From positions 124,001 to 188,000 of the forward strand of contig NW_026860185.1 in assembly GCF_026571515.1 (NCBI RefSeq): 64,000 nucleotides of DNA, written 5' to 3'. Shown here piece after piece: positions 4,055 to 57,479 of this stretch. The stretch's first letter is position 1, and each line of letters begins with the position of its first letter. Both the position numbers and the translations under genes were made by a program. The notes beneath the pieces were generated by a model. The model made no database searches. It had not been told where the DNA came from and saw nothing but the letters and a program-made list of their open reading frames with translations. This DNA comes from Ruditapes philippinarum (Eukaryota).

Positions 4055-7000
4055 TCAATTCCTGTCAATATCTTTAGGTACCAAATTGACTTGCCACTGA
4101 TCTGCAATATCTTGATATACTTCAGCGGTCACGTCAAGTTCTTCATCCTCCCATCCTCTTTTCTCCACGATAATCGTCTGAGGTCCGGCTATAAATTCCG
4201 CATCACAGCCTTCAGGTACAAACCTTTAACATGTTGGTTCAAATAAAACAATTAATCACAAGTTGGTGTCCAGCTACACATTCCACATTCTGTTAATCGG
4301 GTACACACATTAAAAGATTCAACTAAACCAAAAAAAATTAAAGGTTTCTAATGTCCAGCAAAGAAATCCGTAGCTCAAAAACACTTGCCATAAGGTAAAA
4401 AAGAAGCTTCTTTAGTTTAACGTCAAAATAATTACTTTTTTGTCCTATCAATATATCCTAGCATTTTTTAAAAAAATATTCTTTTCTAAAAATTGTGCAT
4501 TTTAGAAAAATTCATCAATGCCGAATGTACTAAGATTATAAACTTGAAACATCTTATTTTTAAGGAACTGTTCTTGTTTTTAATTGTGAAAGACTTATAA
4601 AATGTATGAAAAAAGTAAATACTTTAGGATCTCAAATACAGAACTGAGTATCATGTCAATTGTCTGGAAATAGGAAGACTAGTATTCTATCTATAATGTT
4701 TTAATATTTACATTGTTTCAATAGTGACTGTATCTTTACAACATTCAGATTCCTCTGTACACGACTCAGTCTCGTTAAACGCCGGAAGACCACCTGGACC
4801 GGAGCAACTTGTACACTTATCGTCACAACCACAACCACCACAACACCCACAACCTGCGTGATAAGCAATTGTCTGATATTTTAATAAGTGTTTTATCAGA
4901 GCAAACTTTGAATTATAGCTTGAAAATAAAATTAAATGCATTGCACAATTCGATAAATACCTTAATTTTCATAAAGTTTCTGACACTAAGTATTTATTTG
5001 TACACGAAAGCGGAAAATGAAATAGAAAATTATATTCAAAGAGAAACGGACATAAAATCAGAACATTTCTAGCAGAAAACACCACTTTTGAGTATTTTCT
5101 TATGATTGAAGGGAGATAACCAAAATATTAAAAAGGGAACTTCTCATTTCATAAGGTAAACGTTTGAAATATATTGGACACTTTTATTACATTATATACG
5201 GTATGTAAAATTGGGCATGTATATATACGAACAAAATAAAATCCTCGAATTTGGTCTCTTAAGATAGATACCTGGTAGATCAAATTCCACAAAGCCCGTC
5301 TTTATTACACAATCGGGGTTCGGTTTTTTCGTAGATGACGCCGGCTGAGTTGTCGTCTGCAATTCTGATTTTGGGGATGACGTAGAAGAAGCTGTTGTTG
5401 GAGATGTTGTCTTTCAGGTGGAAACAAAAAATAATGTTGCTATTAAAATGTCTTAAAAAGGACTGCGTGCACTTTTTCTTACTCTTAAAATGTATCTTAA
5501 CCGAGTCCTTACATTGTGTACCATTGTGATATTTGTTTGAAAGTAAATAGTTTGAAATGAGGCATTTATATACGTTACTTAAATATATTTAATCATACAT
5601 TATATGTATTAATTTTCAAATTTTATCCAGCCAACTCGAAATTTAACAAAATCCATAATTTCAAATACATACTCACCGTGGATGTTGAAGTTGAAGATGC
5701 GTTAGAAGACGAAAAGAATAACATAGCTATTTCAAAATCTGTAGTAGTAGAACTTGTAGTGCTGCTTGTCGAACTCGTCGATGTGGAACTGATATTCAAA
5801 CCAGACGCTGCAAAACTAACAACTGCTGAACATACTCCAAACCTACAAATCGGCTGACAGAAATTTTTTTTTATTGAAACTTCATCGAAGCATCATAAAC
5901 AAAATTTTCAGCAACACAAAAGTTGAACGGTCAAGATTGATGTTATTAATTAATCTGTTACTATTTAAATCTATTAACTTATAACAATCTTATTAAATAT
6001 TTATTTATTTATTTATTTACATTCAAGTAAAGCAATGATAATCTTTATAAAATTCATATTGTTTCAGGCCCGTACGTCATTTATAAACAATGAGTTTGTT
6101 GAAATATCATAATTTTTTTTTGTATGCGTACATTATCCTGACTTCTGCTTGAATCGCATGGTGTAAATTGTGGTACAGTAAACGGTGAACATGTGCCTGA
6201 ATCAGTACATCCTTGCGTTGAGCTGTAACAGTCTACTTTATTTCCTTGACTGCCATCCTGATAGGTAGAAAGAAAGAACGTATAATGTTATGCATCAAAG
6301 GTACACCATACTTAAGGTTTATTTACTCCAAGATTATGAAGCCTTTGACTTAGATTTAAATAAGATAGCTCTATTTATATATTCTATGAAGCTTTTGCGA
6401 CCAGAGTTATTCTACTTGGTGGATAAAAAAGGTAAAATTATTATTGTTCTGATAGTTCCAGCATCAAGAAAAGAAATTTACGATCGACAAACTATTTTAA
6501 AGAACAACAACATTTAATTTTCGAACGATTAATCTTTACATGATACCAAAAGCGAAATTAGAAAGTGTCTGGGAATGTATAATATATCTTTCCACGTACA
6601 CAAAATGTCGATCCAGCTTGATAACGGAGCACACATTGTTCGTTCAATGTAAGGAATTCGCTGATATATGAGGATTCATCAAATGCTTGAAAGTCAAAGG
6701 TGGCGTCCTGTATTTTAAGGCAGCTAAGATCCATCCCTCCGTCACTTTATATAGAAAAGATATGTGTTTGTAAATTACCTTCAAGTTGGGCAAGTTTAAA
6801 TTTTTGTGCTTCACATATAAACTTTTAAAACAAATGAAAAATTACGCTGGTTACTTTTTACAAATGCAGTTTATGCAACAATATACATGTATGACATATT
6901 CCAGTTTGATGGATTTACATCGCTTTCAATTAATTTAAAATGAGATGCTTGACAAAACGTTATTATAAAAGAACTTACAAGGCATTTTTGAAATTGTTAA

Positions 7001-10000
7001 TGCTGCATTCAGAGAACTTCCATCGGTTGCCTTGTTTTGAAGAATGTGTAACTGGGCCATATGCTGGTGACATAATAAACTGATCAATGCTGCTACAATC
7101 GTTACCTTCACCATCAAAGGGGACCGACAAACTAAAATATTGATTGGAACCTTTATATGCCACTAAAGTTTAACTCATGTCGATTGTGGAACAAGCCTAC
7201 ACCATCTACAATGTTTTTGATGAGTGATAAATTGTAAAGAAGTCCTTAGTGTAAATAATTCAGAAACAGAAATAAAGCATGACACCGGTCTTAAAGAAAG
7301 AAAGAAATTTAATGCATTTTGAATCATTTCAAAGTTAATCATAACTATAACATGAACTGTATTATTACTGTAAATAAAGTTTTCATATTTGAAATTCATC
7401 ATTTAAAGTATTTTAGGTACAATTTCAGAGAAACAATAATGTAAGGCCATACGTTAGAGCGATCCCTTGCGCCATTGTGACCGGAAAATTATCAATTCGG
7501 ACTATCGAAGTTGCCAAATCTGTGCGACTACCGCATATTTTTCCAGTCGAAATAACTGTTATGATAAATACAATAATATAATCAATTCTGTTTATTTTTA
7601 TATGAAATGAATGATAAAGAATACACAACAAGATTACAATAAGTTATACAAAGTATATCCATCGGAAATGTACATGCAGCCTAATTGGTGGTGCGGGATA
7701 CATATCAACATAATTATAGAAGTTTGTTTTGCAAAAAGATACATGTAATTTAGAAATTCGCGATATATAATTTTTCAGACAATATCTTTGTATATTTACG
7801 ATTATATTACTCTTCGAACAGAACAGAAAACCAAAACTACAACTACATAATTTTATTGCATTAAAACAACATGTTCCACAGCAATAAGAACAATAAGAAT
7901 ATGGAAAGTGTAAGTTTGGTAAAAATTACGTAGGCCTTTACCTTGCAAATCTCCTTCAATGTTTAATCTGAAAAAAAAAGAAATATATGAAATAAATTAT
8001 ATGTATTCTAAAAGAAAATATTAAAATGTTAGAATTTATAAGGACACTCAAGAATGACAAAGTTGCTATCTATATAAATAATGAATCTTTATATTCATAC
8101 TAACAACCAAAACAATGCGAAGGCATCTTAGTCCTATACTTTTAATTTATTGAAAACCTTCAAGATCATTTTGTCTAGCTAAATGTTGTATGCATACAAA
8201 CAACAATTAAATGTTTTTTATGCCGCCTGTTTCTTTTTAGAAACACATCGTATATATTTTTGTAATCTGAATACGAACTTGTTGCTGGCTTTCTGAAAAA
8301 ATATGGAAAGGACGGGAGAGAAAGACAACTTTTTACTTTGTTATAGCCACCAGATGATCTGTGATCGGAAATGCAAATCTTGTTATGAGTTTGTCGTAAT
8401 ATGACTGAAGATCACTGACGGCTGCAGACTGTAACCTATTGTTAGAAACGTTGTTTTCGACCCATTTCTGTTGATTCGAATGCTGAAGAAATAAACAGAG
8501 CTAACGTGATCAGAAAGACGACAAAAGTAAAATCGAAAAATAAACAAGATTTTCACACATTGTTATGTATGGTAAATGTTTTATATAATAAACTTTTATT
8601 CAATTTTATGAATAAATCGATAAGATCAAAATTATCATTTCCTTACTCTTGTGAAACACTTGCATATACTTCCCCGCTTTTAGTTTATAGTTAGATGTTT
8701 TCCAATGTTTTGAGCCAGATATTTGTGATGAATTTACAAGCAATGAATGTAAAAGCAAACGAATCATGCCATTACATTTATATATCACATACAACAAAAG
8801 CTTGGTCACTGAGTTACTGCTGTAGTTATCGGTCTTGCAGATCTTACATTGATATAAACATGTATGTGTCGATTTAAAACACCCTCTGGTGTAAGTTTTC
8901 TACACATTTAGAATGTACTGTTAGCTATTGTGTCAGGTTTTACTTGAAATTTTGATAAACACCCACTATAGTAGGTAAATCGTTTATGAATATGGTTGAA
9001 TACATAAGTAAAAGTATATAACGTATATAATGACCCGTGTTTATCAGATCTATTTTGAGAAACATAAAAAGATATTGATCAAAATCCCTGCAGGGTGTCA
9101 TTTATTTGTAATGTCCGTAAAACTTGTTAATACATTTAAGGTGTTGATCTTATCGACCATTTATGTCACGATATTCATAATAATATTATATAATATAATA
9201 AATATGTACCTTCCAATGAATCTTACATTTGACTTAAGTGTATAATTCTAATATGAAATATATGAGCCGCGCCATGACAAAACCAACATAATGGAGAATC
9301 CAGATCAGCCTGCGCATCCGCGCAGTTTGATCAGGTTCCATGCTGTTCGCTGTCAGTTTCTCTACTTATTATAGGGTTTGTAAGCGAACAGCATGGATTC
9401 TGATCAGACTGCGCGGATGCGCAGGCTTGTCTGGATCCATGCTGGTCGCAAACGCATTATGTTGGTTTTGTCACAGCGCGGCTCATATGCATATAAATGC
9501 GTTTTACTTTCATGTTTAATTGTAATTTATCAATAAATGACATCATATAGTTTTGATAATATATGAATGTAACAATATGTTGAAAGTGAGTAATATTATT
9601 ATTCGATGTCCGTCATTGTATTGTAATGTATTGTGTAATGTATTGTATTTCTGAGAATGTTGTAATTTTTATTTTGTGTCAGGTCAAGGGCTTATTAGCC
9701 TAAACCAGACTGTTGTTGTTTACATGTGGATTTTGAAATAAAATTCTTCTTCTTATGACCAAGAAATGTGGTAAAATCGGTGTTAAACACAGAAATTCAA
9801 ACAATGGTTCTTTATTAAGTGGCTGGATAAATTGGAACTTGGGTGTGATTAGAAAAAAACAAAAACAAAATTTTTTTTTATAAGTATCTGCAAGTGTTCT
9901 ATCTTTTTATTTGAGATATTCATTTTTGTTTTGTTTTGCATCTTTGTGCTCTTCATTCTTGATATCTTTTAATTATCTTACCGTAATAGTTTGATATTGT

Positions 10001-21114: not shown

Positions 21115-24100
21115 GGCGAGTAGGATAGCTCCCCTTTTCATAGAAAAGTCGAGCTAAAAAGTTGACGCTCATATTATCTAAAGTGTATTAATAAAATTAA
21201 TGAAATAATAAATCAGATGAATAATTAATACAATTATATACGAGGGGAAGTCAGAAAATATCCGGACTTTTGACTCGTTCTCGAAAACCATTCAACATTT
21301 TAAAAAAAAATCTTTCTACTCTTTCTCCACCTACGTCTACGCACCTTTGCCATCTTCGTGGGAGCTTTTGTATTCCCGCTGTGAACCATGACTTTGGGTA
21401 GTGTGTACAGCAGATATCAAAGCCGCCCTGGTCTTATATTTCTTTCCAGCATGCAATTTTTTCAGTTCTGGAAACAAATAAACGTCACAGGGGGGCGAGG
21501 TCTGGGCTATAAGGAGGGTGAGACAACAATTGCCATTTGTAAGAGTTGATAACCTCCACTGTAGCTGCGTCGGTATGGGAGGGGGCGTTATCGTGAAGAA
21601 GGAGGACATTTTTATGTGCTAACCTGGGACGCATTTGCTTCAGCTTTTCTCTGAGATTTTTCAGAATTACCTCTGAGATTTTTCAGAATTACAATTTGTA
21701 CTTCAGAATAGTACTTGGCGGCGACAGTTTGACCTTTTGGCATGAAATGAGTAAGTATCATTCCTCGTGAATCCCAAAAGGCAACAAGCATGACTTTGCC
21801 AGATAAAGGAGACAGCTTAAATTTTTAGGAGGTGGGGAACCAGCTCGTTTCCACAACTGAGCTTTTGTCTCAGGTTCGGAATAATGACTCCAGTGATAAT
21901 GCGGTTCAAAAACTTATCTCCTTCACGATTAAAACGACTTAAATGTTCTTTTGCATTGGTTACTCTGGTTACCGTTTGATCTGCGGACAGCTGTCTAGGC
22001 ACCCACCTGGCACTTACCTTGATCATGCCTAGGTGTTCGTGTAAAATATTGTGTGCTGATGCCTTACCGATGCTAAACTTGTTTGCTACCTCCTCCAAAG
22101 TTACTCGACGATTTTGTTGACAAAAGCTTTAACATTTGCTACCATTGTTGGGGTCACCGCCTCAGCTGGCCGCCAGTCCTAGGCCTGTAACAAGTACTTG
22201 TTCTTCCTTCACGAAACTGAGAAACCCAGTTGTAGAAGGTTGAACGTGATGCTCATTTATCAGAAAATCTTTTTAAGCCTCTGAAATATGTGGCAGGGCT
22301 TTTCACCTTCTGCAACCAGAAACTTTATTAAAGAGCATTGTTCCTCTAACAAAGAGTCCATGATAGACGAAACACCTATCATATATCACAGGGCAAAATA
22401 CTGTGTATACACAACTATCATTGAAAATAAACTGACCACGTTATTGGCGAATGAATGTAGTTTTCACCAATATATAATGTGTGTATATAGCTGCACGTAG
22501 AAAGAGAGGAGCATGAAAAGTCCGGATATTTTCTGACCGTCCCTCGTATAACGCTGTCTGTCTTACCCCCTTTGTATTCCCACATGATGTCCTATGTGAC
22601 ACAGTAAATGGTTCACACACACCATTGACTAGGCAGCCCTGTGTTGCACTGTAGCAATCAACCATATTTTGATTGCTATTATCCTAGAAATATAACACTT
22701 CAATGCGCATGTGTAATAATTAAAGACACATGCGCACTGTAAATAAAATCATTATAATAAATTCATCATATTTAACAGTGTGTTCAAACTTGGTTTCTGT
22801 TTTGACAACAAATTTGAAACTTCTTCAAAATTTATCGGTCCAATGAGCATTAGAGGAATACTTGTATATACATATATTGGTACAACCGGTACCGTCGGCC
22901 TAGTGGTTAAGGCGTCAGCCTTCGGATTGTGAGGTCGAAGGTCCGAGACCCACGTGGAGCGTTAATTGAGGAATTAATGTTTCTCGTCGAACTCATTCTG
23001 AAATGGCCGCTTCGTGAGCAGCAAGGTAGTTAAAATGAATGTTTACCATTTTCTATCCGCCTGGCGCCTGGCATAGTGGTAGCAGTTGGGGTAAAAGGTA
23101 TACAAGCAAAAGGTGTCTTATAAGTCAGAAATGGCTGGCCCTTTCAGTAGGGGAGACACTATAATAAACAAACCCTTTACCCTTTTTCCTTTTATATTCT
23201 TAAATATTTACAGTTTTATATTAGTTTTAAATAAGAATTAAAAACCTGTAGAAAGAACGGTTTAATAAAACATTATATTCAAAATATTACATACGCAAAA
23301 TGTAGCCCCACTTTGGTAACGTATTTCGCATTGTTGATCAGCAGATATTTCTTCACTCATAAAAGGGGCATTGTTAAACTTTTCCCAGTCGTAATACTTA
23401 TCCTCTGTTTGAAGACAACTTAGGTCTAATCCGCCATTACTTTAAAAATAAAAATGCTAAAATCGTAACAGAAAAGTACCTTAAATATTCATAAATAATG
23501 TATCTATGATTTACGAACAGTAAATGTATGCTAGATTATTAGCATAGTTTCCGTGTGTTTATTATTAATGAATTGTTTCAGTAAAAGTTTACATACATGT
23601 AGAACAAATTAGATTTTGAAATCCAGCACAACCTTTACTTAAATATCTTACCTATATAAAGATGTTTCATTTAAAACCTTATATTTATTTTAAACAATAT
23701 GGTCAAGGGAACTTTATTTTTGCTAAAACTAAATATTTTTGTCTTATTAATAAAAAAATTTGATAGATGCTAAATATTTATGCGGATCGCTTCCATTCTT
23801 TCGACCACAGATTAAATTGCAGCAAATATTTAGTTTTGGTCGCACACTTGTGTATAATTTGGCTTGAAAAGATTAATCAGTTATGAAACTATTGTGTCAG
23901 TACCAAACCATTGAAATAGCAAATCTAATTTTTTTTTTTTTTTTCATATTTGGCTAAAACACCTTCAACATTATTTAAATTTCAAACGAATCAACTTTTA
24001 ATCGGTAAATAAAACAAATTGACATATTTGGCCATGAAGTAAATAACTAACGTAACGTAACAATCCAAGAATTCGACTTTTTTCATTATACGTACATCGC

Positions 24101-27100
24101 AGCTTGGAACTTTTCTACGCTACATGTTGAGAATAACCATCTGTTCCCTTGTATTGATGGGTCTGTCACAACACTATAATCACTGGACATGATGTATTGA
24201 TCATTAATTTCACAACTGTTTGATGAACCATCGAAATTTACCCCGAATCTTAACCAAAAAACAAAAGATGTCTGTTATGCAACCAAAGTTTTATTTCCCA
24301 TCGTATATTTCTCAATATCATTTAACTTTATTTTTACAATAAAAGATTTCACTGTCTATATTCGCGAGAATGTGAAAGTCTTAGCTGCCATATACTTATT
24401 CGTTTGTTTCAGTTTGAATTACTTTAAGATTTCTTGCCATGTTGCTCGTCTTGGCAATATATTGCTCAGCTTCGGTGTTGCTATTGCACAGCTCCTGCGA
24501 TAGTTTCACATTCCTGCGTTATGGATATACACAGTGGGTATACCATTTTTCTGCACAAGAATATCTGTAAACTGTTTTTCAGAATAAAAAAGAGTAGCAC
24601 GATGGTCTCAGCCGTATATTCTTTTCTGGCTTTAACATTACGCCTATAGTTTAAGATGTATGTAAAAAAAGAAACGTCAGTTTTATATCTAGGGAGAATA
24701 ATTACTATGGCTGTTGTATCTTACTGAAATACGTAAATGTACAGTATATCTATTAGTTCGATAAATGTGTTTGTGGTTTCGCCTGAGGTTTCTCGTCGGG
24801 ATCTGCTAATGAATTGATTTTTAACATGATTATTTGTCTGCGGTTAGCGAGGTTATATATTTGCTATTACTGTGTCATATAAACTTTACTGACACTTTTG
24901 ACAGGTTAATTTGGCTTTCGTTTGTAACTTTGATATTAATGTAACATTATAACTTAGATTTCATTTGTGACATAATCTTTTTTTTCCGTCTGATAATATG
25001 TCCTGGATGTCGTTTATGACATGAAAAGTTCGACTGCTGTAATATGATAACATCTATCTATCTATCTCTGGATACTGCCAACCCCTCTTACGAGTGTTAA
25101 AGGCAGGAATTTAGTGCACGTCGGATTGTTAGTAAAAGGTAAAAAGAAAAGCTAAAAAAGAAAAGTCCAAACATTGACATGCTTGGAAGGCGAGACTGAA
25201 AATGTATTCTAGTCATGGTTAAAATGTTAATAGTGAAACAAGATGATAAGAGATAAAATAGTTTAAAAACACTGGGAGTAAGACTAGTACTGCAAACCCA
25301 CCACTGCCTGTTTGAACTGACTCAGGTTAGGCAGGGTGGCAATGTTACTAGGAAGTTTATTCCATAGTATAATGCTATGAGGGAAGAAAGAGTACTTATG
25401 GTAGTCAGAGGATACCTGTAATTGGCGTAGAGATAAGGGATGCATATGTCTGGTTAATCTATGTGGGGTTTGAACATAAGTTGGGAGATTAATTGCAACT
25501 AGGTTGTGGTATATCTTAAAACATTATCAGTCTACAGTCCAATCTGCGATGTTCAAGGGGTCGCCAGCCCAGTTCTTCCTGCATGGCTGTGACACTAGAG
25601 TGAGGGGAGTAATCCCTTTTAACCCATCTTATTGCGCGTCTCTGGATCATCTCAACTTTGTCAATATTGGTTTTAGTGTAAGGAGACCAAATAGTTGAGG
25701 CATATTCAACCTGTGGGCGGACCAGGGACTTGTATGCTAGTTCTTTCACTTTCTCATTTTTTAGTAATGACATTTCTTTTAATAAAGCCAAGGGATCTGT
25801 TTGCATTGGAAGTTATTCGAGATATATGTGTATTGAATTTAAGGTCAGCAGATAGATCTAGTCCGAGATATTTAGCATTTGTAACAGACTCTAGGACTTG
25901 GCCATGGAGCATATATTTGTGTTTAATTATGGTTTTATTTTTGGTGATAATGACAATATTTTCTGGACATAATAATAAGTTAATCATTACCTTTGTTATC
26001 AAATGTATCATTATATATCATGCATCGTCATGATAACATATAAGACATATTTACTTTTTCAAAATTTAGTAATGTGTAAGTAAAATTGGTTACGTCCGAG
26101 CTATCGCTTGAGACATGGCAACTTGAAAGTGGTCAATACGAACAATAGATGCCGCCACATTTGCTGTCTCCCCACACATGCTGCCAGCTGTCATTACTAT
26201 ATTGTATAAAATAGTTAATTAGAGCTAGTTTGTCAATTCTATAAGGATCATAAGCCTATGGGGCAATACATACAAAGCTTATAAATCCACACATAAAAAT
26301 GATCATGAAAAGATAGTACGTACAATTGAGTATAACATAATTTATACTAAGTTTATGTACTTCGGAAGGCTGAAACTCAAATTTAACCAAAGAAAAATAT
26401 ATAAAAGAAAAACACTTCAAAATAAACATATGAATGACTTGAAAACGTGCATTTGTACCCCAAATTACAGGCGATCTTTATTGCAATCAGTACAAAAATG
26501 TCAACTTACTACATGTAGCTATAACCTTAGTGCACGAATTCTCTGACAATTATTGTTAATAAACAACAGAACAGAATGTGTAGTTATAAAACTGTATGGG
26601 GAGAATTGCTATTGACGATATTTAGTCCTACTCACACATTCATAAAATTTAACGACATAGATTATTAAAAATATGCTTGAAGTAAATAAAAGTATTAAAT
26701 ACATGTTGGCATGTTGTGGAAGCGTAAGTTTGGCAAAAGTTTGATATGTGTAAATCATAAAGATTTTACCTTGGTCTCCGTCTGCCATTTGTAACCTAAA
26801 AACAGTTCATTATTTAATTTGATTAATTTATTTATGGTAAAATGATTATAAAATTGTACTGCTTAAGTTACATTAAATAAATATGTAAAAAATATTTTGC
26901 AGTCGGCCTAAAAACCAAGCATTATACAGTTTCATTAACCTTTTTAACAGAATTGTTGTAAATTTCATCAAACATTGTTCATAAATTAGGATTATAAACG
27001 GAAAACCCCACGGTAACACTAAAGTTCGTATACGAATTTTAACATGCAAATGAAGACTATAATCAGTTCGTGTATGTGCTACGTCACGGTGTTATAGTTG

Positions 27101-36893: not shown

Positions 36894-39869
36894 ATGTATA
36901 CACCATGGTTGATATGTGGAGCAGTTGTATTACTGTTTATTGTGAGTAAAGTCAGTGCACATGGTGACCATCATCATCAACCGGTTCCGCCTGACCAACG
37001 ACCAACTAGCTTTAATGATCCAAAAATAACACAAGACGAACAGTATGTACACTTATATCGCATTTTGATTTATTTCTATAAATTGATATCAAGAATTGTA
37101 GATGTAAAATATATATTTAAATATGTTTAAACCAATAATTGCATTTAATGATTTATTTTGGTATGTTATAGAAAATCTCAGTCAAGGTTGCGTCATACCA
37201 CATTATGCTACACATGATTTATTCCGCACTTATGTTTATTTGTTAAAATAAGATATTCTAAATTTATGGAAAGTGAATTACCCGCGCATATAAGGATATG
37301 ATTTGTTAATAATGAGCAAGACACGATATTTAAATGATAAAAAAAAATGCAAAGAAATAGAGAAAACACACATATATTTAGCAACATTTTGCAATTTAAT
37401 TACTAATAACATATACTAGTATATTAAAACTTTATACAATTTAGAAATCAGGAACATTTCTTTTCCGTAGACTAACAGAACATCCTTAGAAAGCATTTTA
37501 ACACCGGGAAACGTTAAGTAATGTTGACTTTTTCTGGCTTTAAATTTTGTATATTTTCTTGTCTATTTATGATTATCATAATTATTATGGGGAAGTAAAA
37601 TCTTTAAACTATAAGAAAAGACTTGCTCGAATTAAATAAAAATGACAATGTGTCTTTTACTTCCCGCATAGACAGGCTTGCACCGTTTATATCCATGCAG
37701 CATACACGATTTATTGACAAAAATATGATATTTTTTCAGGCATTTACGAGAACATATGAAAGATGAAATAAATCTCAGCAATAAACCAAAAATGAGTCCG
37801 GAAGAAATGGAATTCCATTATTTCAGGTAAAGAAAACAACAACTAATAATCTAACATGTATGTACGATTAATAGTACATGCGCTAATGTTTCTTTTTTAT
37901 AATCTACCTTCATAATAGTCCATTTTTATATTGATAAATATTATCCACGCGCATTTTGTAATTCATTCTTTTCTATGTTGATGTTAAAATTGTGCAACAA
38001 ACATGGTGGAAAAAAGTGTCTGTGTCTTGTCTGAAGTACAATAATTTTATACGCACGTGTTTTAGATTGCACGATACGAACAACGACACTCACCTTGACG
38101 GTATAGAGATAATGCAGGCCATGGCGCACATGTTACCCGTGCCGGAACTCGAATTCTCGGAGAAGCTCGGAAAATCTAAGGAGCAACAAGAAGAAATGAT
38201 GCAGGAAAAGTATAAGGGAATGCAGAAATATTACGAAGGTAAACAATTCATGTTGTAATCATTTTAACATGATAACTATTTCAAAAGATCAAGTTATTAT
38301 CATTTTACCATTATGATAACTATTTTAAAAGTTCATATTATTATAAAGATAACTTTTCTGTCGATTGCTCTTTAACGAAAGCGGGTCTGAGAGGGCACTG
38401 TGATCGCAGATCAAGACTTTCTTTGTACAATTTCAGGCATTGCGAGTGCTTTAACTCAAATTACAATGTTTCTGATGGGTCTTTAAAAAGTCCTGACTAA
38501 CTCCTCGTATAAATGTATATCAAACACAATCTATGTACATGATTTTTTTCATGCTTCACATATTTCATCATGGATAGATGGAAAATGTCGAAATGTGCCG
38601 AGGTTTCGCGTTTTGTGATGGATGTTGTGGTTGTTTTACCTTTAAAGCAATAAAATTCTTATGTTTATAGAATCTATATGGATTTGCAAAACGATACATA
38701 TACATTTAGTATAGACAGTCACATTATCACTGACTTAAAATCATAACAATGATGTTTACGTTAAAATAGGGAAATTGCAATAACAATAACATGTACATTT
38801 TTAGATATGATAGACCGCGTTTTGCATGATGACGACACTGACAAAGATGGATACTTAACTTACTCAGAATTCGCACGTGCTCGTCGTCGCGAGGAATTCC
38901 ATGCACGCAGAATGCACGAGCAACAAATGATGAGTCAACAAGCCCAGTTTGAACAATTTCAGAAGTTCCAAGAAATGCAGGTATGGAGTTATGGATAATG
39001 TTCTTGAATAAAACCCTTACTACAGTAAATTATAGTTAAGAAATAACATATCCCAAACTGTGATTTTATTGCTCAATAACATCACTGTTTGGAGTTCGGA
39101 TGCGGGGAATTTTATCACGAGGGCGTAGCCCGAGTGATATAATGATGCGCATCCGAGCGACAAACAGTGATGTTATCAAGCAATAAAATCACCGATTTGG
39201 ATATATTATTTCGATTCTAACACGACATCAACAAATAATTGCTGCCGTACATGATAGTTAGCTAAATGGCGCCTGATTTGTTTCCGTACTTATTGTCAGC
39301 GCGTCACATTTTTAGTGGTTACGTCACGTATATAATGATTACGTCACATGTCTAAATATAGAACGTCAAACAGTGATTTTATAGCATAATAACACACACT
39401 TTCGGTTCTTCTATGTTCAATAGGAAAAAATGCGGGTCGTGTTAGAATCATTGTTAGAATTGAATTTTTAGAAACTAAGAACAATGCATGATGGATAAAT
39501 ATCGTCATGTGGAAATCTAATTTGTCATGAAAATTCTCGTATTTTCTGCTATTGTTTCGTAGCATGGTAATTTAAAATAAAATAGAAAAAATATAGAAAA
39601 AAATATGAGTGTGTGACAGTAGCCTTAAAGAAGTATATGACAAAATTTTAAGCATTTTCTGCGTTTTGTTTTGACTTGAGTTACATTTTTTGTATTTCCA
39701 CTTTCAGAAAAATATGCAAAATAATCCAAATTTCCAGGCTAATATTCCTCCACCACCATCCCAACAACAGCAACAAGGACAGCAGCTGCAGTATCAACAA
39801 CAACAACACGGTCAACAACAGCAATACCAACAAAACCAGGGACAACAACAATATCAACAACCCAGATAG
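36894..39869 (+). CDS. MCFD2: MCFD2-like secretory-pathway EF-hand protein with a Gln-rich C-terminal extension, about 248 aa
   Basis: Coding exons 36894-37042, 37740-37826, 38066-38238, 38805-38980 and 39708-39869, in frame. Signal peptide, QDEQHLREHM, MSPEEMEFHYFRLHDTNNDTHLDGIE (EF-hand 1) and IDRVLHDDDTDKDGYLTYSEF (EF-hand 2) match MCFD2 hallmarks. Confidence 0.88.
39041..39450. repeat. Long palindromic interspersed repeat in an MCFD2 intron
   Basis: 39041-39211 is an imperfect palindrome centred on CACGAGGGCGTAGCCCGAGTG. A second inverted pair ATTCTAACACGAC / GTCGTGTTAGAAT lies near 39214 and 39436. Confidence 0.75.
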
Positions 39870-40679
39870 ATAGTTCATTGTAGATGTAGTCATATAAATT
39901 AATTATTTAATTGGATATTTCTAGGTCATTATTTATCTAATTTTGAATGTACGCAATTTAACAAAGTGCATATTATAAAAGTGATACAGGAGTGAACGTC
40001 ACAATAAAATAATTTTATCTATTATTAGTGATTAGATTAAAAAGAAAGTACGAACTAAAAGAAAGTGCAAACTACTATCTAAAAGATATTTTTTATATTT
40101 TTCCTTAATTCAGGTTATTGTCAAAAGTTTTGTTAAAATTGTAAGTATAAGCGAAGCTCATAAACTACAAGAGAAATGTTCAGAAGAGAAGCGAGAATTT
40201 GTGTTTTCGGTGACATTGGTAATGGTCAGTCGGATTAATGCAATAATACATGACTAATAGAGCTCGTTTTGTGAAATCTAGAAAAAGATATGATGGTGAT
40301 TGTAATACATTAAAGATGTCTGAAATTAGTTATATCAGAAGTCATGGATTTTCTAAATCATTTTAATATCATATCCGACTAAGTTAATAAAGTTTACTTC
40401 CAACAAATATTATTCTCTAAAGATTTTGAAAACTGTTATTTGTATCGTACAAAGTTTGTTTGTGATATGAAATTAGTGAATGGCTACCGAGGCAATTATC
40501 TATAACGTAGGCAATATTTAGTCATTCAAGAGACATTTATCCATTAGGTATACATCCAATGTAGGTGTATGAATCTTTGAAAGTGGTTTACCTGATCATT
40601 AGAATTATGGCTAAGCTTAAGAAATCATGAATTAGTTAATATGATAACCATGTTTAGAAATACCGTGAAATTTAAATAA

Positions 40680-43675: not shown

Positions 43676-46600
43676 ATGCGATATATTTTCCGTTGCTTGG
43701 TTACTAATAGAAGCAAAAGTTTTGTTTTTAAGCAGAGCGAAATCCTGCAGCATATTTCTTCACAGCATGCAACATGTCGGCGTTTTCTGCAGTCATCAAC
43801 TTCTGGCGGAGTTGTTTTTAAAAGCCCGAGACCAACTGTCGAAATCCCAGTGGTGCCTTTAAGTGACTTCTTATTTTCTAAATTTTCAGGATATGGAAAT
43901 AAAACCGCACTTGTAAGTTTTAAATCTTATTACTAACAATTATCATTATTATTATTATAATCATTATTATTATTTTATTATTATTATAATTATTATTATT
44001 ATTATTATTATTATCATTTTTTTTTTTTTTTTTTTTTTTTTGCTTCGTTTGCTTAATATACAGTTTAAGCTATTGTTAATCTAATTCAGGTAGGTCAGCC
44101 ATTTTGTTTTTGCTAAGTGGGTTCAAGTAAAAGTAGGCCAAAATATATATAAGACGCAAAAAATAAAATTAGTATGTTAGACCTAAACTGGATTTGCCTT
44201 TCTTGAAATGTGCATAAAACTTTGCAATAGATTTTTCTTTGCCTTCAGAAATTCAGCACATTCAAGATACATATTCTTACTGCTAACTTTCTTATTTGTG
44301 TTTATAATAGTCCTGTAAATTGTGAATCATTTTACATTGAGAGCCTTGTTGGTACATGAATATTGACCTACTTTCACTCTGGACTTACTTAATTTGCTTT
44401 CAATGCTGATTTACCATAAAGGGTCCTCACTGTAAATTGTTTCTTTTAATCCTACCTCCAAATTAGTTGAAATTACACTATCAGAAGATAAAGTTTTGGT
44501 TTTAAACAAAGGTTGACGATACAAATGCCACATCGTACACATATTCCCAGCTTGAACAACTCTCGAGAAATGTTGCTAGTTTCTTGTATAGGAAGGGACT
44601 TCGAAAAAATGACGTCATATGTTATTATGGTACTAATACTCCAGAATTTGGTGTTCTGCTGTTAGCATGTTCTTCTGCTGGTATTGTGTTGTCTACGGCT
44701 AACCCTGCATACACAACAGGTGATATAATTATTACAACATGTATTTACAATACCTTAAAATACATTATAATGCTAGCTTTATAAACTCGTAAATATTTGA
44801 AAAGTATCGTTATTATTTTTGTCTTATCATTAAAAAAAACAAGCTTCTTTTATAAAGCATTTAAAGTGTAAATTATGTATACTGAAAACGTGTCAAAGTG
44901 AAATCATTTACCTATAGATGTCCAATAAGTGGAGCTCAGGTATAAGTTACCATCACCCTAGTTACCGCATCGTCTGTCTGGGATAAAAAAATAAAGCATG
45001 CATCGTTTATCTGTTACATTTTTTTATTAATAGAGGTAACAAAAAGATATGATTATTTTTATTTTAATTATTTTTTCTAGGTGAGCTGGAGAGACATATG
45101 GATCATTCTGGGGCTACAGTTCTTGTTACCGTACCCCAACTGATACCAAACGCCAGAGAAGCAAACCTTAAGGTATTATCTCAATTCGCCTCAACGTCAT
45201 GTGAAAATTTGTGCATGTATAATGCTCATATAAATATACATTTTTTAGCTCGTGTGTGATGAAAATTTGAAGCGTATTTGTGTTGTACTGGTGTTATATG
45301 ACGAAACTCATCTATATGGAAACTCGAACCCACGATCCCTGGGTTGAGAGGTATACACCATAACCGCAAGACCATCGCTGCATTTGTTTCAGATATTATA
45401 CATTTGAGCTGTATGTACATTTTTGTCATGCAATCAATAATTGCATATAAAGTTATCAAAGCATTATTTCTTTTAAATAGAATGTTTAAAATAGATGGAT
45501 AAACACACGTATATGTAGTGTACATACAAAATATTTCACTGAAACGTGAAGATATGTTTAAAGATAATCATCGTTTTTAAGCCTTTGTAAAGTGTGAAAA
45601 AAATAACTATTACCTTTTTTTACCGTAAACTTTTAACTTCAAATAGGCTTATCTTGGTAATAATATTTTGGATGACTGATTTTTTTACATAAATGTTTTT
45701 AATTTCAATTATAATGTTCTCTACTGAAGTGAAGTGATCGATCCTTAATGTTTAAAATACTTCAATGAAAATAAAAGCATGCGTTTGACTGCGTTGATTT
45801 CGATAAAAATATTGATCAAATCAACTTTGAATGTGTAACACACGCAGTCATGATAAACATAAATACAAAGATTAGAATGAAATGAGCCGCGTCAAGACAA
45901 AACCAACATAATGGGTTTGCGACCAGCATGGATCCATACCTGCCTGCGCAGCGAACAGCATGGATCCTGATCAGACTGTGCGGATGTGCAGGCTGGTCTG
46001 GATCCATGCTGGTCGCAGATGCACTATGTTGGTTTTGTCATGACACGGCTCAAATACTTTACATGATAACATGTTAGTAATTCTAGTTTCACAAATAGTA
46101 AACTATTGAACATTTAATTTGTCTTTCATCAGGATGTTATAGTGATAGGCAATAGTGATGGCTGCCAGTCATTTTCAAACGCACTAGCAGATGACGGTAA
46201 ATGTTACCCACCGGATATCACTATCAACCCAAAGGAAGATGTTGTTCTTTTGCCATATAGTAGCGGTACGACAGGACTACCAAAAGGCGTTATGCTGACC
46301 CATCATAACTTGGTGGCCAACCTTCTGCAATTTAAGTTAGTTTGTCATTATGTGTCCGCAATGTTTTAAAATATTTTAGGTTATATATCTACAAAAGCTC
46401 GGCTATTTTCGTTATTGATGACAAAACAAACAAACAAACAACAAAAATAACCATCGATATAATTAAAAAAGGTCTATTTAAATAACTTAAAAACATAGCA
46501 ATTTGTCTATCTTTACTTATTTAAAGTAAAACAATTTCATCTGAAAAAAAGAATATTTGAGGAAAAAAGACAACAAGAATCACTTGATAACGAATTCATT

Positions 46601-49600
46601 TTGAAGAAAATTATATTTCCCGATTGTTATCAAAATATCATGATATTGAACAGTCCCCAAAGCAATTTAAACTCATACCATTCTGGAACCGGAAGTGGTC
46701 AGACATTGTCACCAGTAAAAAAGCACACCCGCACAGTCTGTCCAAGCTCTCTACTGCCAGTAGCTTTATTTTTTAGCTCGACTATTCGGCGTCACACTAT
46801 GTTTGTTTTAACGTGCAAAAATGAATCTCCAAAACTACTGAAAGGCACCATTATGCCTCAGAAACAAATGAGAATTTCATTTTTAAGAAAGGGAAATACA
46901 GGAAATTTATTATGTTTAACTATTGTTTTTGAACATGTTAGATGCTTATCACCTGAAAGAAGCACTGAATGTATTTATTTTTTGTCGTAAAAAAGGAAAA
47001 TGTAAATAAAGTAGCATTTTGACTTCCATTCAAAACATTAAACCTCTTTAAAGGCAATAAAAACAAAAGATGGTTCAGGTAATTGGTAAATGTACATCTT
47101 TTTTGGAAACGGTAACAGACACAACAGATTAAAGGATTAAGAAATGAAAACAATTATTGGGCATAATGGGCCTTTTAAGGGAAGGGAATGAAACTTAACA
47201 CACTCATTTTAGACCATTAAAGCGTGCCACTGTTCAGGGCCCATTACTTTAACTATTACTTTATTTATTATCAAGCACTCGGAGTAGTCGAGCGCGCTGT
47301 CCTACTGACAGCTCTTTTAATGTAAAACTGTACACTTCGAATGGACTGCTCCAAATTAATGTTTGGCAGATCCATTACTACAGTATGGTATAGTTAGGAC
47401 ATTTGAATATTTGCATGTGGATATCATAACCATTGACGCAATTCATTTTCCTCTTATTTTCAGAGAATGTTCAAGCTCATTCGCAGACGACACAAACCTT
47501 GCTGTTCTGCCGTTTTACCACATTTATGGAGTTCTTGTTCTTTTGTGTGACACTTTGCAAAGTGGAGGCACGCTGGTGACCTCTCCGTGCTTTGAACCGG
47601 AACGCTATTTGAAAACTTTAGTTGAACATAAGGTATGAAACACGATAACGTTTATATTGTATCATAGTTTGTGTCAGAGTTAAATCGTATATATTGGGGA
47701 CCTTTCTGTTGAAAATGCATCAGAGTTAAATCGTATACATATACATGCACAGTGCGTTAACTGTAGTGCAGGTATTAGTTACCAGCACTTCAGAGCATGC
47801 CCATTGATTGGCTCATTTTTTCTTGGGGTACATATTGTGACGGCAGAGAAAAGGAAAGCGACAGAAATACCATATTCTGATGTTCGTTCATTGGTTCCTT
47901 TTTGCCGGGCTTTCGTTAAGTAGACTTGAAATTATTTAGATTCGATTGCAATTCTTCAACTGACTTTCCAAATATGACCATATCGTCGGCAAACAGTAAA
48001 ATAATCATACATATATCATAAAAAGTGAAACCTTTATCGTTATTATTATCATTATTCCTTAAGTATTGTTCTAGATCTTCCAGAAATAAAGCAAACAAAA
48101 TCGGTGAATTATTTTGGCCCTGATATATCAAAAAAGTCTTACAAAGTATTACAGTGTTTAACACAGGAAGACACCGAAGAGAACATATCTTTAAAAATCC
48201 TGATCAATTTACCATCTAGTCCGAGATTAAAAAGTTTATACCAAAGAGCATTACGCTAGATTGAATCTAATGTTTTTAAAGTCTATAAAACAACAATAAA
48301 CAACAATAAAGACGTGAATTTTGGGATAGTATTCGTTCCACTAAAGAGTGCAAAACAAAATTGCATGAACGTAAACCGAATTGTGCGTCAGACTGTATAT
48401 TGTTATCACGCGCCCAATTGTCAACCCGTTTTGTTAATACCTTTGTAAATAATTAACCAAAATTGCTAATTGATGTTATACCTCTATAATTATTCGGTAC
48501 CTCTTATTTCCCTTTTTATATAATGGTACGATATAACCATAAGACCATACTTTTGGGAAATGACCGGAGTCAAATATAGTGTTAAAACAGGCCGTGATAT
48601 GACCGATTAGTTTGTCGGACGTCTCAATGAAAAACTCATTTCATAAATTATCGGCAGGACATGGTGCCTTATTTCCGCGCCCGCCATTTTAACTTGTTCA
48701 TTTTCGACTGTTCCCTCAGCGGACATATGACATATCTATGACATATTTCATATTTTGTTTTATTCAGATAACACAACTTCACCTCGTGCCTCCCTTGGCG
48801 ATATTTCTGGCGCGTCATCCTATGGTGGATAAGTTCGATCTATCGAGGATACGATCAGCTTTCTGCGGGGCAGCGCCACTTGGAGAGACTGTAACACATG
48901 AGATGAAGAAGAAAACGAATATCACCATTAGACAAGGTAAACACTTACAACAATAAGAAAGCAATCATAAATGAATATAAATTTCGTTGGTCTTAGATCT
49001 GTTATTTCTGTCTATAATGCATTTGCGAGATTTTGTTAGAATTGATATGCAGAACCTAGGAAATATATATATAAATGCTACTGTTCAGTAATCACTAGCT
49101 AAAGTAAAACACAATAATCTTGCTTGAAACAATAAGAAAATACCATTTTAATCATGGATAAATGTCTTTATTTAAAAGGTTATGGTTTAACGGAGACCTC
49201 GCCTATTATTTCTATAGACTACCTAACAGATGTAACTATTGGATCTGTTGGACCCCTTGTATCTAACACAGAAGGAAAGGTATTGATTTAAAATACAGAT
49301 TCTCCAACCCTTTACGAATGGTTTCTTTTCATTTAAACATATTTTATTTCCATAAAGAAACATACATGTAAAGGCATTTGCAACGCCATGGTATAACGTA
49401 TTTGGCAAAATGGTAAACGAATGGTCTGAAACTAATTATTAATGATCAATCAGCAAATGGAAAAATAAATAAGGATTGTTATCAGTTACAAAGTTTTTTT
49501 GAACATCATCATACTGCAAGTTTGTATCGTCGTTTTTCATTGGACAATCGTGACGTTTTTATTATCTATTTACACGGCTGCTGTCAAATTATAAAGTAAT

Positions 49601-51799
49601 TGCTTTTTATTCTCTACTAAAGGAAGTTTGCAGTACTATAAATTCGATATAAAGGTTTTTGACCAGTAATATGCCCGTATATATGTGAATGGTTATTTGC
49701 AACATAACCCTCCCGTATGGGCCCGGGTTATATGTTTATACAATCGTTTATATATAACCTGTCAAAAAACTAATAGTATCAACAGTTGTAGAACTATTAA
49801 CCTTTTAACAGGTCATAATTATAATATATTAAAAAATAACGGAGAACTAGAAATGTGTCCATTGGACACGGGGACCCTACACTCCACTGTTTTGTCAATC
49901 TTATGACTTTAGGTCAAATATTTTTTAGGCTACATGTGCCACAAGTAAAAAACAAAAAATCGTTTACTTAGTCAAGGGCAAGAACTTTACAAATACAGAA
50001 TAAATTCATGCATAAGTACATGGCTGACCAAGATTCTTGTAAACTTTCAGACCTACAGGTCAAATACTTTTTGAGTTATGCATGGACAAGTTAAAATTGC
50101 AAATTTATACTAAGTCAAGGGCATTAACTCTAACAAAACTGAAAAAAAAATCCACATGCAAACCCCATGTGCATAGCTTCACAGTGATTTTGATCATTTT
50201 TCCTGTAAAGTTGGTTGATTATAACTCAAGCTCTTGGTGAACAAATAACAAAACATAATGGAACAGTTTTCACTAAGTCAAGGGCAATAAATCTGACAAA
50301 ACAGAATAAATCCACATGTGAAAACCCAGGTGCACAACTACACATGCTGAGCAAAATTCCTGTAAAGTTTCATGACACTAGATCAAATACTTTTTAGTGA
50401 AATGGCGCACAACCGCATTATTTCATTATATATTAAAACAAAATTAATGACGTTTACATTATTACTGTACATGGCTGCTGCAACTTTACTTTATTTAAAT
50501 TTTGATTAGAATCAGAGCTTTTTCTTTTTTAATTATGTCACTGATTTTTAGGAATTTTTACTTTATTTATTTTGTTTTTGTTTGTTAACCGATTTTGAAT
50601 ATATACAACAGCGTGTGTCAATGGCTGTTAAGTATTACATTAACCGTTCATTGGCGGGTTAGCTATGTTCGGTATATATATATATATATATACAATCAGT
50701 AAGAGAGAGCCAAACAAATCTGACCAAGCTCTGTACTGTTGGTTGACCAACTTAAATACCGAAAATATATACTAAACAGTTCCAAAAATGAATTACTAAG
50801 CTTCTATGTACATGCGTCAGTTCATAGACGTGAAGACGGGAGAAACTCTAGGACGAAATGAAACAGGTGAATTGTGCGTGAGAGGCCCACAAAACATGAA
50901 AGGTTATCTGAAGAATGAGAAGGCTACCCGAGAAATGATAGATGACGATGGTTGGCTGCATACAGGTATGCGGCGAATCAAATCGTAGATTTCATTATCT
51001 ATATAACATTTGGTATTGTTTTCTTCAAATTCTAGACAAACGAATCCTTGATAAACGAATTCGTAATAAACAAATGTTTGATAAACGAATTCTTGATAAA
51101 CAGATCAAATGTAAAAGTTCAAAATTTTAATGTAATCGAAGTTTCTTTAAATTGGAGCAATCATTATCTTATTACAGGTGATATAGGACATATGGAAGAT
51201 AATGACTGTATTGTTATAACAGATCGTTTAAAAGAGCTAATTAAGTATAAAGGAAGACAGGTACAACACCACTATATTTGCAATATCTTTTAATTGAGAT
51301 AATATTTCTGTTTTTGACAAATCTTATATAGTATATGCCCATCATATTTGCTGTACATAAATGTGGGTTTTTGTAATCGGTATTTAGACAATTAGATACT
51401 TAGTCCACATAGTCCTGATAGCGCAAAGCGATAAGAAAACATTACATACTCATAGTTCATCATTTCAAATTCTCTTCATTTCATCATAACAAATTGTTTC
51501 ATAATTTTTAGGTTGCCCCAGCAGAGTTAGAAGATTTGTTACACAAACATTCGGCCGTTCAGGACGTGGCTGTGATTGGTATGCCGGATGATCGAGCCGG
51601 AGAGCTGCCGAGAGCATATGTGGTGCTCAAACCCGATATCTCACTACACGCACATGACATAATGAAATATGTGGAAGGTATCACATTCCAAAAGTATTTA
51701 TTCTTCACGAATTTGTATCTTAGGACACAGTTCACCTTTCTTAATAAATTCATTTCATGTTTTTGTTGCTGCTGCCGTTGCTGTTGATGATGATAATGA

Positions 51800-51831
<32 letters not shown>

Positions 51832-52152
51832 TCATTGTTATAATTGATGCTGTTACTGCTGAAGCTGTGTTATTGTTGTTGTTGCTGCTGCTGCTGCTGT
51901 TGTTGTTGTTGTTGTTGCTGCTGTTGTTACTGTTGTTGTTGTTGTTGCTGCTGCTACTGATGATGATTTTTAAGTTATTAAGTTATGATGATCATTAAGA
52001 TATTATTATTATTATTATTATTTTCAGAAAATGCATCAGATTTCAAGCGGCTTAGAGGAGGTGTTGAATTTGTTAAAGAAATTCCAAAAACTCCGAGTGG
52101 CAAAATATTGCGGAGATTGTTGAGGGACCAGTTGTCCTCTCTGCAACAGTGA
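43676..52152 (+). CDS. 4-coumarate-CoA ligase / firefly-luciferase-family acyl-CoA synthetase, copy 1, 11 exons, about 565 aa
   Basis: Exons 43676-43912, 44512-44719, 45081-45172, 46133-46335, 47464-47632, 48768-48936, 49179-49279, 50821-50965, 51178-51260, 51512-51677 and 52028-52152, in frame. ANL-superfamily motifs [67 protein letters not shown] and [12 protein letters not shown]. Confidence 0.93.
45882..46052. mobile_element. Palindromic MITE, family 1, copy 3 (internally deleted)
   Basis: Same TIRs as 9261 and 40680, with the central part missing. Confidence 0.85.
46769..47316 (+). mobile_element. HINE-type element with a nested TTAA-type MITE
   Basis: TTTTTAGCTCGACT start and AGTCGAGCGCGCTGTC..GACAGCTCTT end. 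A nested segment near 46841-47180 is bounded by AGGCACCATTATGCC / GGCATAATGGGCCT, the same TIR family as 59409-59755. Confidence 0.65.
47916..48490 (-). mobile_element. Degenerate LINE reverse-transcriptase fragment
   Basis: [17 protein letters not shown] and [21 protein letters not shown] (RT core motifs); the upstream part is decayed. Confidence 0.8.
49845..50400 (-). mobile_element. HINE-like element fragment with internal tandem repeats
   Basis: AACTAGAAATGTGTCC..GGACAC hairpin end and repeated AGTCAAGGGC units. Confidence 0.5.
51780..52021. repeat. Compound trinucleotide microsatellite (GAT/GGT/TTG/CTG/ATT) in the last intron of ligase copy 1
   Basis: Directly visible; explains the spurious poly-D/G/L ORF. 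Confidence 0.95.
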
Positions 52153-53089
52153 TATACATGTATATACAGATATAGATACTGACACGGTCATGTATATTTT
52201 ATCAAGTGTTACTTGGAAACGAGGTTTTGTAATTAAGAGAAATAACACTTTATACAGTAACTTGCTAATGATTCAAGTGCTCTAACATCTTTTAATGAAA
52301 TCAAGATCTTTTTTTTTTCGTATTATTTAATTATGTATAATAAAGCATTATTTTTTCTTAAAAATTTGTCCGAATAAGCGTTTCGTAATACTATCATTAC
52401 ATAATCATCCTTAGGAAGCTATCAGACTGACTAATTCTGCAAAGGTACCAGAAATTATGCATAAAGGGGATTTCTTAGTCTGGTCGAAATTCTCGCGTAA
52501 AGCGGGAAAGTCGCCAAATGTAAAGTCCAGCCTTTCACGATAAGTGGCATCAAACAATTTACAAGAGAGGCTTCTAGCCTCTTTCTTCCCACAAATTATA
52601 AAATTTGGATATTTGTTTCTAGATATTCGATAGGAAAGTTATACATATATTGTGATATCCTCATGTGTCAAAAGAAATGATACCCAATGTACATGTACTA
52701 TCTTATTAGTGAATCTCGAAAAATCTGTAAAACTTTTTTCGACATGAACTTAAAACACATCTGGAAAATGATAAAAGGTGTTATCTTTTCTTCTTGATGT
52801 TTACGTAAATTGTCTTTAGAGTAAGATAACATATTTGATATGTAGCACAGACACATACACATTAATGAAATTGATAACTAATGAAGAAAGGTAACATGAC
52901 AAATGTTATCTCTAACTTTTGAGCCCTATAAAATTGATAATATAATATCTAGACAGACAGTATATAGAAAAGGCCAAACTTGTTTATCAGTACAGTCTGA
53001 CACCGTACAATCTAAAACACTTTTCACGAAATGCAATGCTTCTGCATATTTTAATCAAAATATTTCCCCATTAAAATTTCAGCTAGGAT

Positions 53090-53480
53090 TACGAGAAAAG
53101 TAAAAAAAAAAGCTACAATTACTTGTAAAAGTTGGACGTATCATGTCCAAAAGCAGGCTTGTAACGTTTGGAATTCCCCTGGGATCTATTCTTGGCCCTT
53201 TTTTATTCTTATTCTAAATTAAAGATATCACATCAGCTTCAACAAATGCTAATGCAGATCCTTATTCTGACAATTCTACTATGTGTGTATTTGATTATGA
53301 TTTGAATGTAGTTGAAAGTAAACTACAAAAGTATTTGGATGTCATAGATCGATGGTGCAATTTAAAAAATATGTTAATTCTTCCAATTACAAAATGCATG
53401 GTACTGTGTATGGAACAAAGTAAAACTTATTATTGTAATTATCTGTCTTTAAGTATTGTAGTGTGGCAGATCCATTAATA
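53090..53480 (+). mobile_element. Ancient LINE RT remnant
   Basis: VTFGIPLGSILGPFLF..DI and LQKYLDVIDRWC..TKCM. Confidence 0.6.
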
Positions 53481-53541
53481 AGCAAACACAGAATAATATA
53501 TAATACGCCATGTGTCGATGGTCAAGTATGTTAAAAGGCTG

Positions 53542-54455: not shown

Positions 54456-54515
<60 letters not shown>

Positions 54516-56225: not shown

Positions 56226-56256
<31 letters not shown>

Positions 56257-56804: not shown

Positions 56805-57335
56805 AGGCTGAGCGTTTTAATTAAGATTGTAAATTTTGAGAAAAAAATGTATATTAAACTTCTATAAATAAATATAATATGTTAATAAATATAATATAAA
56901 AAATTATAAAAAAGACCAGAAATGTGTAACAATAAAGTGATTTATATTATGTATATAAAAAATATTGTTATTTAAAAAGGAGAGGTATTGAACGCCTGTA
57001 TCACTGTAAACCATAGAATATTTGGAAATTGTTTATTAAGGAGAAAATACAGATTTATTTAACGTAATGATGTACTGTTCATGCAACTAGATGATCAAGA
57101 AAAATAATTTTTTTTGCGGGTTTTGCCAGGATTCATGGATGGAAGGAATTGTAAGACAAATGACCGTACTTGCAACAAATTCATTTATTATTTAGGTACG
57201 GTTTTTAACCATGCTGGTTATATACTTTGAAAGAAACGTATTTAATAGAGAGAAGACTAAAGGCATTAAATGTCTTATGGATAATCCATGAGTTTTTGCG
57301 ATACTGTTAAAGTCATTTTCGCCTGGTGTCAAGCA

Positions 57336-57479
57336 GAAAGAAAAAAAGAAAGAAGAAAGAAAGAAAGAAAGAAAGAAGAAAGAAAGAAAGGAAAGAAGGA
57401 AGGAAGGAACCATTTTCGCCTGATGTAAAACAAAAAAGAAGGAACAAAGGAAGGAACGAAGGAATGAACAAAGAAACGG

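Follow-up and report, generated by a model that had tools for sequence, protein, structure and literature searches.

A clam-restricted tail on M12B pseudoproteases

The window, a stretch of 64,000 nucleotides of the Manila clam Ruditapes philippinarum (NCBI RefSeq assembly GCF_026571515.1, contig NW_026860185.1, positions 124,001 to 188,000 of the forward strand), contains all or part of three genes, A, B and C, which form a tandem family of M12B/ADAMTS-like genes and whose proteins end in a real, unclassified, clam-restricted module. This tail of an M12B pseudoprotease family exists in two stable cysteine (Cys) types, with 10 or 5 Cys in a central knob. The sequences of A and B in which the module was originally predicted were both located in the window, on the minus strand. 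Gene B matches RefSeq XP_060606863 (P0004) and gene C corresponds to RefSeq XP_060606868 (P0003), both proteins of R. philippinarum being named "uncharacterized". A literature search, including four gene identifiers, retrieved nothing on the family; expression tables in supplements may contain these genes. What is newly named here is a clam family of likely secreted pseudoproteases together with its unclassified disulfide-rich tail in two stable forms. The module is best explained as a disulfide-stapled beta-hairpin bearing a Cys-rich knob, its geometry being predicted at low confidence. Through this end of the protein, a secreted scaffold or decoy without catalytic activity would bind its partners, an explanation to which we give an even chance.

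The host protein

The proteins consist of a predicted signal peptide, a prodomain, an M12B domain, an ADAMTS-type cysteine-rich domain, a Ser/Thr linker and the module. This is the domain order of ADAMTS-type secreted M12B proteins, and the matches to M12B/ADAMTS entries (PF01421, E 0.025; PF13574, E 0.011; PDB 4q1l, E 0.0045) agree with each other, all being weak and below curated cut-offs, as are those of the paralogs to PF17771 (E 0.002-0.19). In ADAMTS proper, the cysteine-rich domain is followed by thrombospondin type-1 repeats and a spacer. In contrast, the clam proteins lack the zinc ligands and gave no Pfam match to a thrombospondin repeat, a spacer or PLAC; between the cysteine-rich domain and the stop codon, only the Ser/Thr linker and the new tail were found. 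The hydrophobic N-terminal stretch, judged by eye, reads as a signal peptide, and the proteins are likely secreted, as far as their sequence tells. An RxRR-type site is present in B and P0010, the latter being a full-length protein of the 10-Cys type.

Active M12B/reprolysin members are defined by the zinc motif HExxHxxGxxH (PMC4885070, in excerpt). Alignment of this motif to a solved M12B domain revealed that all three zinc-binding His and the catalytic Glu have been lost in A, B, C and P0010; the first His is replaced by Gln, the Glu by Gly or Ala, and the remaining two His are gone, whereas the Met of the Met-turn is invariant in all four. Substitution of both the zinc ligands and the general base is what distinguishes M12 pseudopeptidases in Table 2 of PMC11266112, as excerpted. 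Indeed, the region in gene B reads QAIARTFGVNFD, which is similar in kind to the pseudo-ADAM motifs in the same excerpt, where the pseudo-ADAMs 2, 11, 22 and 23 are described to function by binding. The clam proteins share the replacement of His by Gln, the loss of Glu and the retained Met-turn with these pseudo-ADAMs, with Caenorhabditis elegans UNC-71 and with inactive PII snake-venom homologues (excerpts of PMC11266112 and PMC5086652). They differ from pseudo-ADAMs in having no disintegrin domain, EGF domain or membrane segment, in ending in an unclassified module and in having been found here in clams only. A clam M12B gene with an intact zinc motif (L042) was without the module in the 18 kb examined, its end encoding other Cys domains and a membrane segment.

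Gene structure of the module

The module of gene A comprises 116 residues, encoded by three minus-strand exons (Table 1). All 12 introns of the 3' model of this gene (13 exons, from 11616 to the stop codon) have GT-AG ends, and the model keeps 524 codons in open frame; the boundaries of the exons upstream of 11616 are less firm. The joints 4221/4710 and 4851/5270 were each found in contigs of two out of four runs (X7 and X8, and X1 and X7, respectively), the status of these runs as RNA being a guess; the joints coincide with GT-AG ends. Furthermore, a contig of 2127 bases spans gene A with a gap of 283 bases that fits two exons at the knob joints. Among the contig joints listed from the four runs, none skipped the knob exon; such skipping would shift the frame, because this exon is flanked by introns of phases 1 and 2. 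The strand-1 exon possesses two acceptor sites 3 bases apart, in different runs (window positions 5407-5410).

The knob was predicted to sit on a single phase-1/phase-2 exon. One exon of these phases indeed encodes it in A, B, C and D (a paralog type represented by further copies in the genome), but the returning strand lies on the same exon. A shufflable cassette exon has the same intron phase on both sides. The knob exon was rejected as a free cassette of this kind, given its phases 1/2 and the stalk strand that it carries.

Conservation, cysteine types and distribution

The expectation that homologous flanks surround an insert of different length and Cys content (10 versus 5) was borne out. 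When A and B were compared, strand 1 on the one hand and strand 2 with the last exon on the other aligned better than any of 2000 shuffles, whereas the knob alone did not exceed chance (1472 of 2000 shuffles as good). All full modules have a core Cys frame in the knob in common, consisting of C-x-C, a third C and then C-x5-C, and the 10-Cys knob consists of this frame plus an insertion. Apart from subtype differences, 8 of the 12 Cys of A, all seven of B, a Pro-Gly, a Gly-Pro, an EV and a Trp were invariant in the five full modules, the Cys positions listed being C4, C18, C20, C24, C46, C52 and C68. The whole module contains 12 Cys in the A type and seven in B, C and Mercenaria; the mature body has 13 in B, as opposed to 12 in A, C and P0010. 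One Cys is thus spare in the 5-Cys type.

The 10-Cys type was found in Ruditapes and Mya, the 5-Cys type in Ruditapes and Mercenaria. Between A and Mya, identity amounted to 93% in strand 1, 62% in the knob (48% without Cys) and 50% in the last exon; between B and Mercenaria, these values were 71%, 52% (38%) and 63%. A last-exon profile built from six sequences matched 45 out of 1.84 billion proteins at E<=0.001, of which 12 single-stretch matches look like true members and 33 were set aside (six of these were inspected, all being unrelated repeats). With a full-module profile, five of 7356 candidates matched, none of them new. Fragment matches may extend the range beyond Ruditapes, Mercenaria and Mya.

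The knob was also predicted to be variable, which applies between the subfamilies and not within them. It could be a fast-diversifying recognition element under positive selection, comparable to a loop of an immune receptor, as three of the four coding variants in the knob exon change an amino acid, all three within the A-specific insertion, against one change and six silent variants in the last exon, and as many D-type copies occur in the genome. However, the 3:1 ratio does not depart from the 9:8 of all other exons (21 coding variants in total; Fisher p=0.60), no variant removes a Cys, and the Cys patterns are identical across clam genera. Moreover, the knob sequence groups found in the genome number at least three (A/D, B and C) and the extra copies are mostly broken fragments, so that we consider a diversifying knob highly unlikely.

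Predicted structure

AlphaFold models of the A-type and B-type modules (predicted local distance difference test, pLDDT, 56; predicted template modelling score, pTM, 0.31-0.32; knob residues with pLDDT below 50) both contain two strands of eight residues around the knob (E7-14 and E56-63 in A; E7-14 and E40-47 in B), followed by a short terminal hairpin. The equal length of these strands is consistent with the beta-hairpin stalk of the original prediction, weakly so at this pLDDT. If the strands are antiparallel, their ranges would in each model bring the Cys of the Pro-Gly-Cys face to face with the final Cys of the knob core, and the first Cys would miss the closing Cys by two residues. Disulfide bonds between these partners, thus from first to last Cys and from Pro-Gly-Cys to last core knob Cys, would close the stalk.

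Searches of Pfam, NCBIfam and PDB sequences gave no confident match to the module; a known domain spanning the insert, which would have refuted the original prediction, was thus not retrieved by profile or sequence searches. Fold searches yielded nothing significant and are uninformative at such model confidence. In architecture only, the predicted module resembles the bovine ultralong complementarity-determining region (CDR) H3, described in excerpted literature as a beta-ribbon stalk presenting a disulfide-rich knob. Unlike the latter, the clam module, whose geometry is a low-confidence prediction, has no immunoglobulin domain, is fixed in the germline, is conserved across genera and is not somatically varied.

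Weak resemblances to known families

A loose likeness to the hairpin of cystine-knot hormone beta-subunits had been suspected too. It exists, as an alignment of the B type against the two GPB5 genes of the clam matched over 23 columns (probability 25%, pairwise E 7.5e-4), covering a strand, Gly-Cys-x-Cys-x2-Cys and the following Cys loop; the end of GPB5 and gene B have the same C-x-C-x2-C-x6-C spacing. None of 100 shuffles with Cys fixed reached the score, yet the best came to 24.78 versus 24.83. The first Foldseek row for the B model was a worm alpha2/beta5 hormone (8END; E 1.8). These matches would suit a module whose main role is dimerisation or polymerisation. Such a tail might have been built from part of a cystine-knot hormone, namely its last strand and terminal Cys loop, and chains would be joined through the odd Cys of the 5-Cys type. 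Seven Cys are indeed found in the modules of B, C and Mercenaria, and in BMP and gremlin an odd number of Cys is the mark of a dimer bond (excerpt of PMC3224965). A cystine knot, however, cannot be built. According to the same excerpt, it involves six Cys, and its eight-residue ring is made of two stretches, Cys2-Cys3, which includes a Gly, and Cys5-Cys6 further along. The C-x-G-x-C motif is absent from all three 5-Cys modules and lies within the first Cys cluster in the 10-Cys type, no C-x-C occurs beyond residue 23 and no Cys beyond residue 49-67 of the 92-116 residues. Furthermore, the motif common with GPB5 stands at the start of the module instead of at the end, the last 43-49 residues being free of Cys. 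The Cys arrangement is therefore not that of a cystine-knot growth factor or hormone beta domain; a tail serving chiefly for dimerisation is, in our view, unlikely. The two GPB5-like genes are arranged in tandem in the clam genome (G000:C12911:12200-22000).

The same stretch resembles the metal-binding motif of CopA (GMTCxxC, which in that family lies in a ferredoxin-like fold; E 0.5 over 23 residues, a local likeness only), C-x-C-x2-C following a strand in the module (E 0.5-1.4), and one member matches the Anti-TRAP family (E 0.026-0.069). In addition, the stalk pairing leaves three knob Cys over in the 5-Cys type, and the 10-Cys knob is rich in Cys and Gly. The knob might thus bind a metal (Zn, Cu or Cd) through its Cys, the protein being a dead metalloprotease with a separate metal-binding tip. 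This is distinctly unlikely, as all these matches are below cut-off and Cys-driven, the domain searches returned no metallothionein family, and the 12 Cys of the A type pair off evenly; moreover, a secreted protein normally has its Cys oxidised.

A third likeness, to one half of a PEGA domain, concerns the last exon, 26 columns of which matched a profile of 22 PEGA domains, a score reached by one of 100 shuffles. Similarly, in a language-model search, six of ten rows among the matches listed were PEGA, CarboxypepD_reg, fn3_3 or DUF1416 clusters (scores 0.79-0.82). Accordingly, the returning strand and last exon might form a beta-sandwich of the PEGA/transthyretin-like kind in reduced form. The outgoing strand would complete this sandwich, and the knob would be a loop inserted into it, of minor functional importance. 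Scores below 0.9 are mere leads, however, the hhalign probability was 1.1%, no Pfam match was obtained, the B type lacks the K-x-G-W stretch behind the match, and neither model contains a sandwich, making this very improbable. As three unrelated families fit about this weakly, none of them is established. A contig of the clam assembly (L047; G000:C4368) carries a gene for an outer-membrane receptor of bacterial type that includes a CarboxypepD_reg-like domain; it is likely contamination, with relatives in Cyclobacteriaceae.

Different histories of body and module

Four-taxon tests, with unrooted trees, were performed on A, B, C and P0010. In the body (285-column alignment), sites favoured A+C (12:2:4) and B+C was rejected (approximately unbiased, AU, test, p=0.0056). 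In the module, sites favoured B+C (0:8:1) and A+C was rejected (AU p=0.0001). A shorter body alignment again favoured A+C (7:1:1; versus 0:8:1 in the module, Fisher p=0.0014). Exon by exon, A is nearest to C in the Met-turn exon and the two following ones (58-68%), but in each of the three segments of the module its closest match is D (55-79%; C there 29-37%), the switch point lying between the cysteine-rich exon and strand 1. The simplest reading of these sequence comparisons, with no donor or order claimed, is that recombination in the linker exchanged the whole three-exon module, which would have left A with a body resembling that of C and a module resembling that of D.

On the favoured reading, the protein would be a secreted one devoid of protease activity that binds partners; its module would sit on a Ser/Thr linker, and which partner is bound would depend on the type of knob. 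We find this proposal evenly balanced between right and wrong. The linker would hold the module away from the body, the two knob types would bind different partners, and the unpaired Cys, the seventh in modules of the 5-Cys type, would be used in a bond between chains or domains. That putative binding by the knob sets paralog specificity, as predicted, is plausible.

Several observations weigh against this picture. Between B-type orthologs, the knob is the least conserved part. The structure models are poor, having been built on overlapping alignments of 11-12 rows, five of them full length. The shorter body alignment does not reject B+C (AU p=0.051; 0.089 in one with mismatched columns), and gene conversion between the bodies of A and C accounts for the discordant trees no less well than an exchange of the module, only four taxa in unrooted trees being involved. 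Finally, part of the family may be dead, given an apparently broken exon in gene C and the stops and frameshifts of D-type copies.

In a wider reading, the module would represent a new clam-specific fold, a small Cys knob displayed by a disulfide-stapled stalk. It would act as an interchangeable head that targets secreted dead metalloproteases, its three exons being traded among the tandem paralogs and duplicated elsewhere in the genome, with 5-Cys heads forming covalent dimers and with knob-less, short-tailed paralogs in existence; it would be a germline counterpart of the stalk-and-knob of cow antibodies for matrix or microbial targets. This is rather doubtful as a whole. If the stalk-and-knob geometry and the module exchange are true, the module would be a naturally occurring, compact scaffold for display, and the family would show clearly how a dead enzyme acquires new targets when its tail is exchanged.

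Gene coordinates, genomic copies and neighbouring genes

Table 1. Coordinates in the window of genes A, B and C and their exons
Feature	Position	Strand	Content and remarks
Gene A, whole	15358-4055	minus	Predicted signal peptide (by eye), prodomain, pseudo-M12B, cysteine-rich domain, linker, module
Gene A, exons	7555-7453, 7131-6979	minus	Degenerate zinc motif (no His, no Glu); Met-turn retained
Gene A, exons	6744-6600, 6257-6132	minus	Last part of M12B domain, then ADAMTS-type cysteine-rich domain; paralogs with weak PF17771 matches
Gene A, exon	5853-5677	minus	End of cysteine-rich domain and Ser/Thr-rich linker; ends in phase-0 intron near putative module exchange point
Gene A, strand-1 exon	5410-5272	minus	End of Ser/Thr linker, first Cys of module, outgoing strand; ends in phase 1; joint in contigs
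Gene A, knob exon	4853-4712	minus	142 nt, phase 1/2; 10-Cys knob and returning strand; joints in contigs
Gene A, last exon	4223-4055	minus	Closing Cys, Gly-Pro motif, predicted terminal beta-hairpin, stop; joint in contigs
Gene B, exons encoding the degenerate zinc motif and the Met-turn	26197-24095	minus	
Gene B, exon	19890-19761	minus	End of cysteine-rich domain, short linker, outgoing strand; P0004
Gene B, knob exon	19415-19328	minus	88 nt, phase 1/2; 5-Cys knob and returning strand; P0004
Gene B, last exon	19026-18876	minus	P0004
Gene C, 5' exons	2230-195	minus	5-Cys module outside the window, at L025:3160-4576

The genome contains the three tandem genes and D-type copies, mostly broken 3' fragments, these numbers being lower bounds. 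At least six copies of the D-type 3' part (everything from the cysteine-rich exon through the last one, some 4-5 kb including introns) were found with 67-90% DNA identity (G000:C1132:10000-27000 and 46000-59000, C18, C3013, C11516 and C10466), most of them with stops or frameshifts, and some may be haplotigs or sequencing errors. Of six other Met-turn loci, only C10466 has the module in the stretches examined. In gene C, the exon matching 8482-8337 of A appears truncated (L025:8500-8700), so that this gene seems to be short of one intact body exon in the assembly, which would account for the downstream start of the RefSeq model; either a pseudogene or an assembly error may be behind it. A degenerate zinc motif also occurs in two other M12B paralogs (L014:9864-9940 with L015:331-375, and L029:374-450 with 705-730; G000:C1132, plus strand), both of which end in a short tail: the residues PDCCC are followed by a beta-like strand, an intron of phase 2 and YIPC. 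This tail may be a minimal, knob-less version of the module, as the phase and position of the intron recall the last junction of the module.

Repeat or transposon stretches are present in the window at 9200-9480, 21300-22300, 25200-25800 and 45850-46100. They comprise a highly repeated, highly covered element within an intron of gene A that resembles a short interspersed nuclear element (SINE) or miniature inverted-repeat transposable element (MITE), and, within gene B introns, remnants of a mariner-like transposase as well as a fragment of a reverse transcriptase. On the plus strand, a gene at 36900-39900 encodes a secreted EF-hand protein with a Gln-rich tail, which we take to resemble MCFD2. 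Two tandem acyl-CoA synthetase-type genes, presumably of the luciferase-like/4-coumarate-CoA ligase type, follow at 44600-52150 and 58100-64000 on the same strand, the product of the first ending in SSLQQ.
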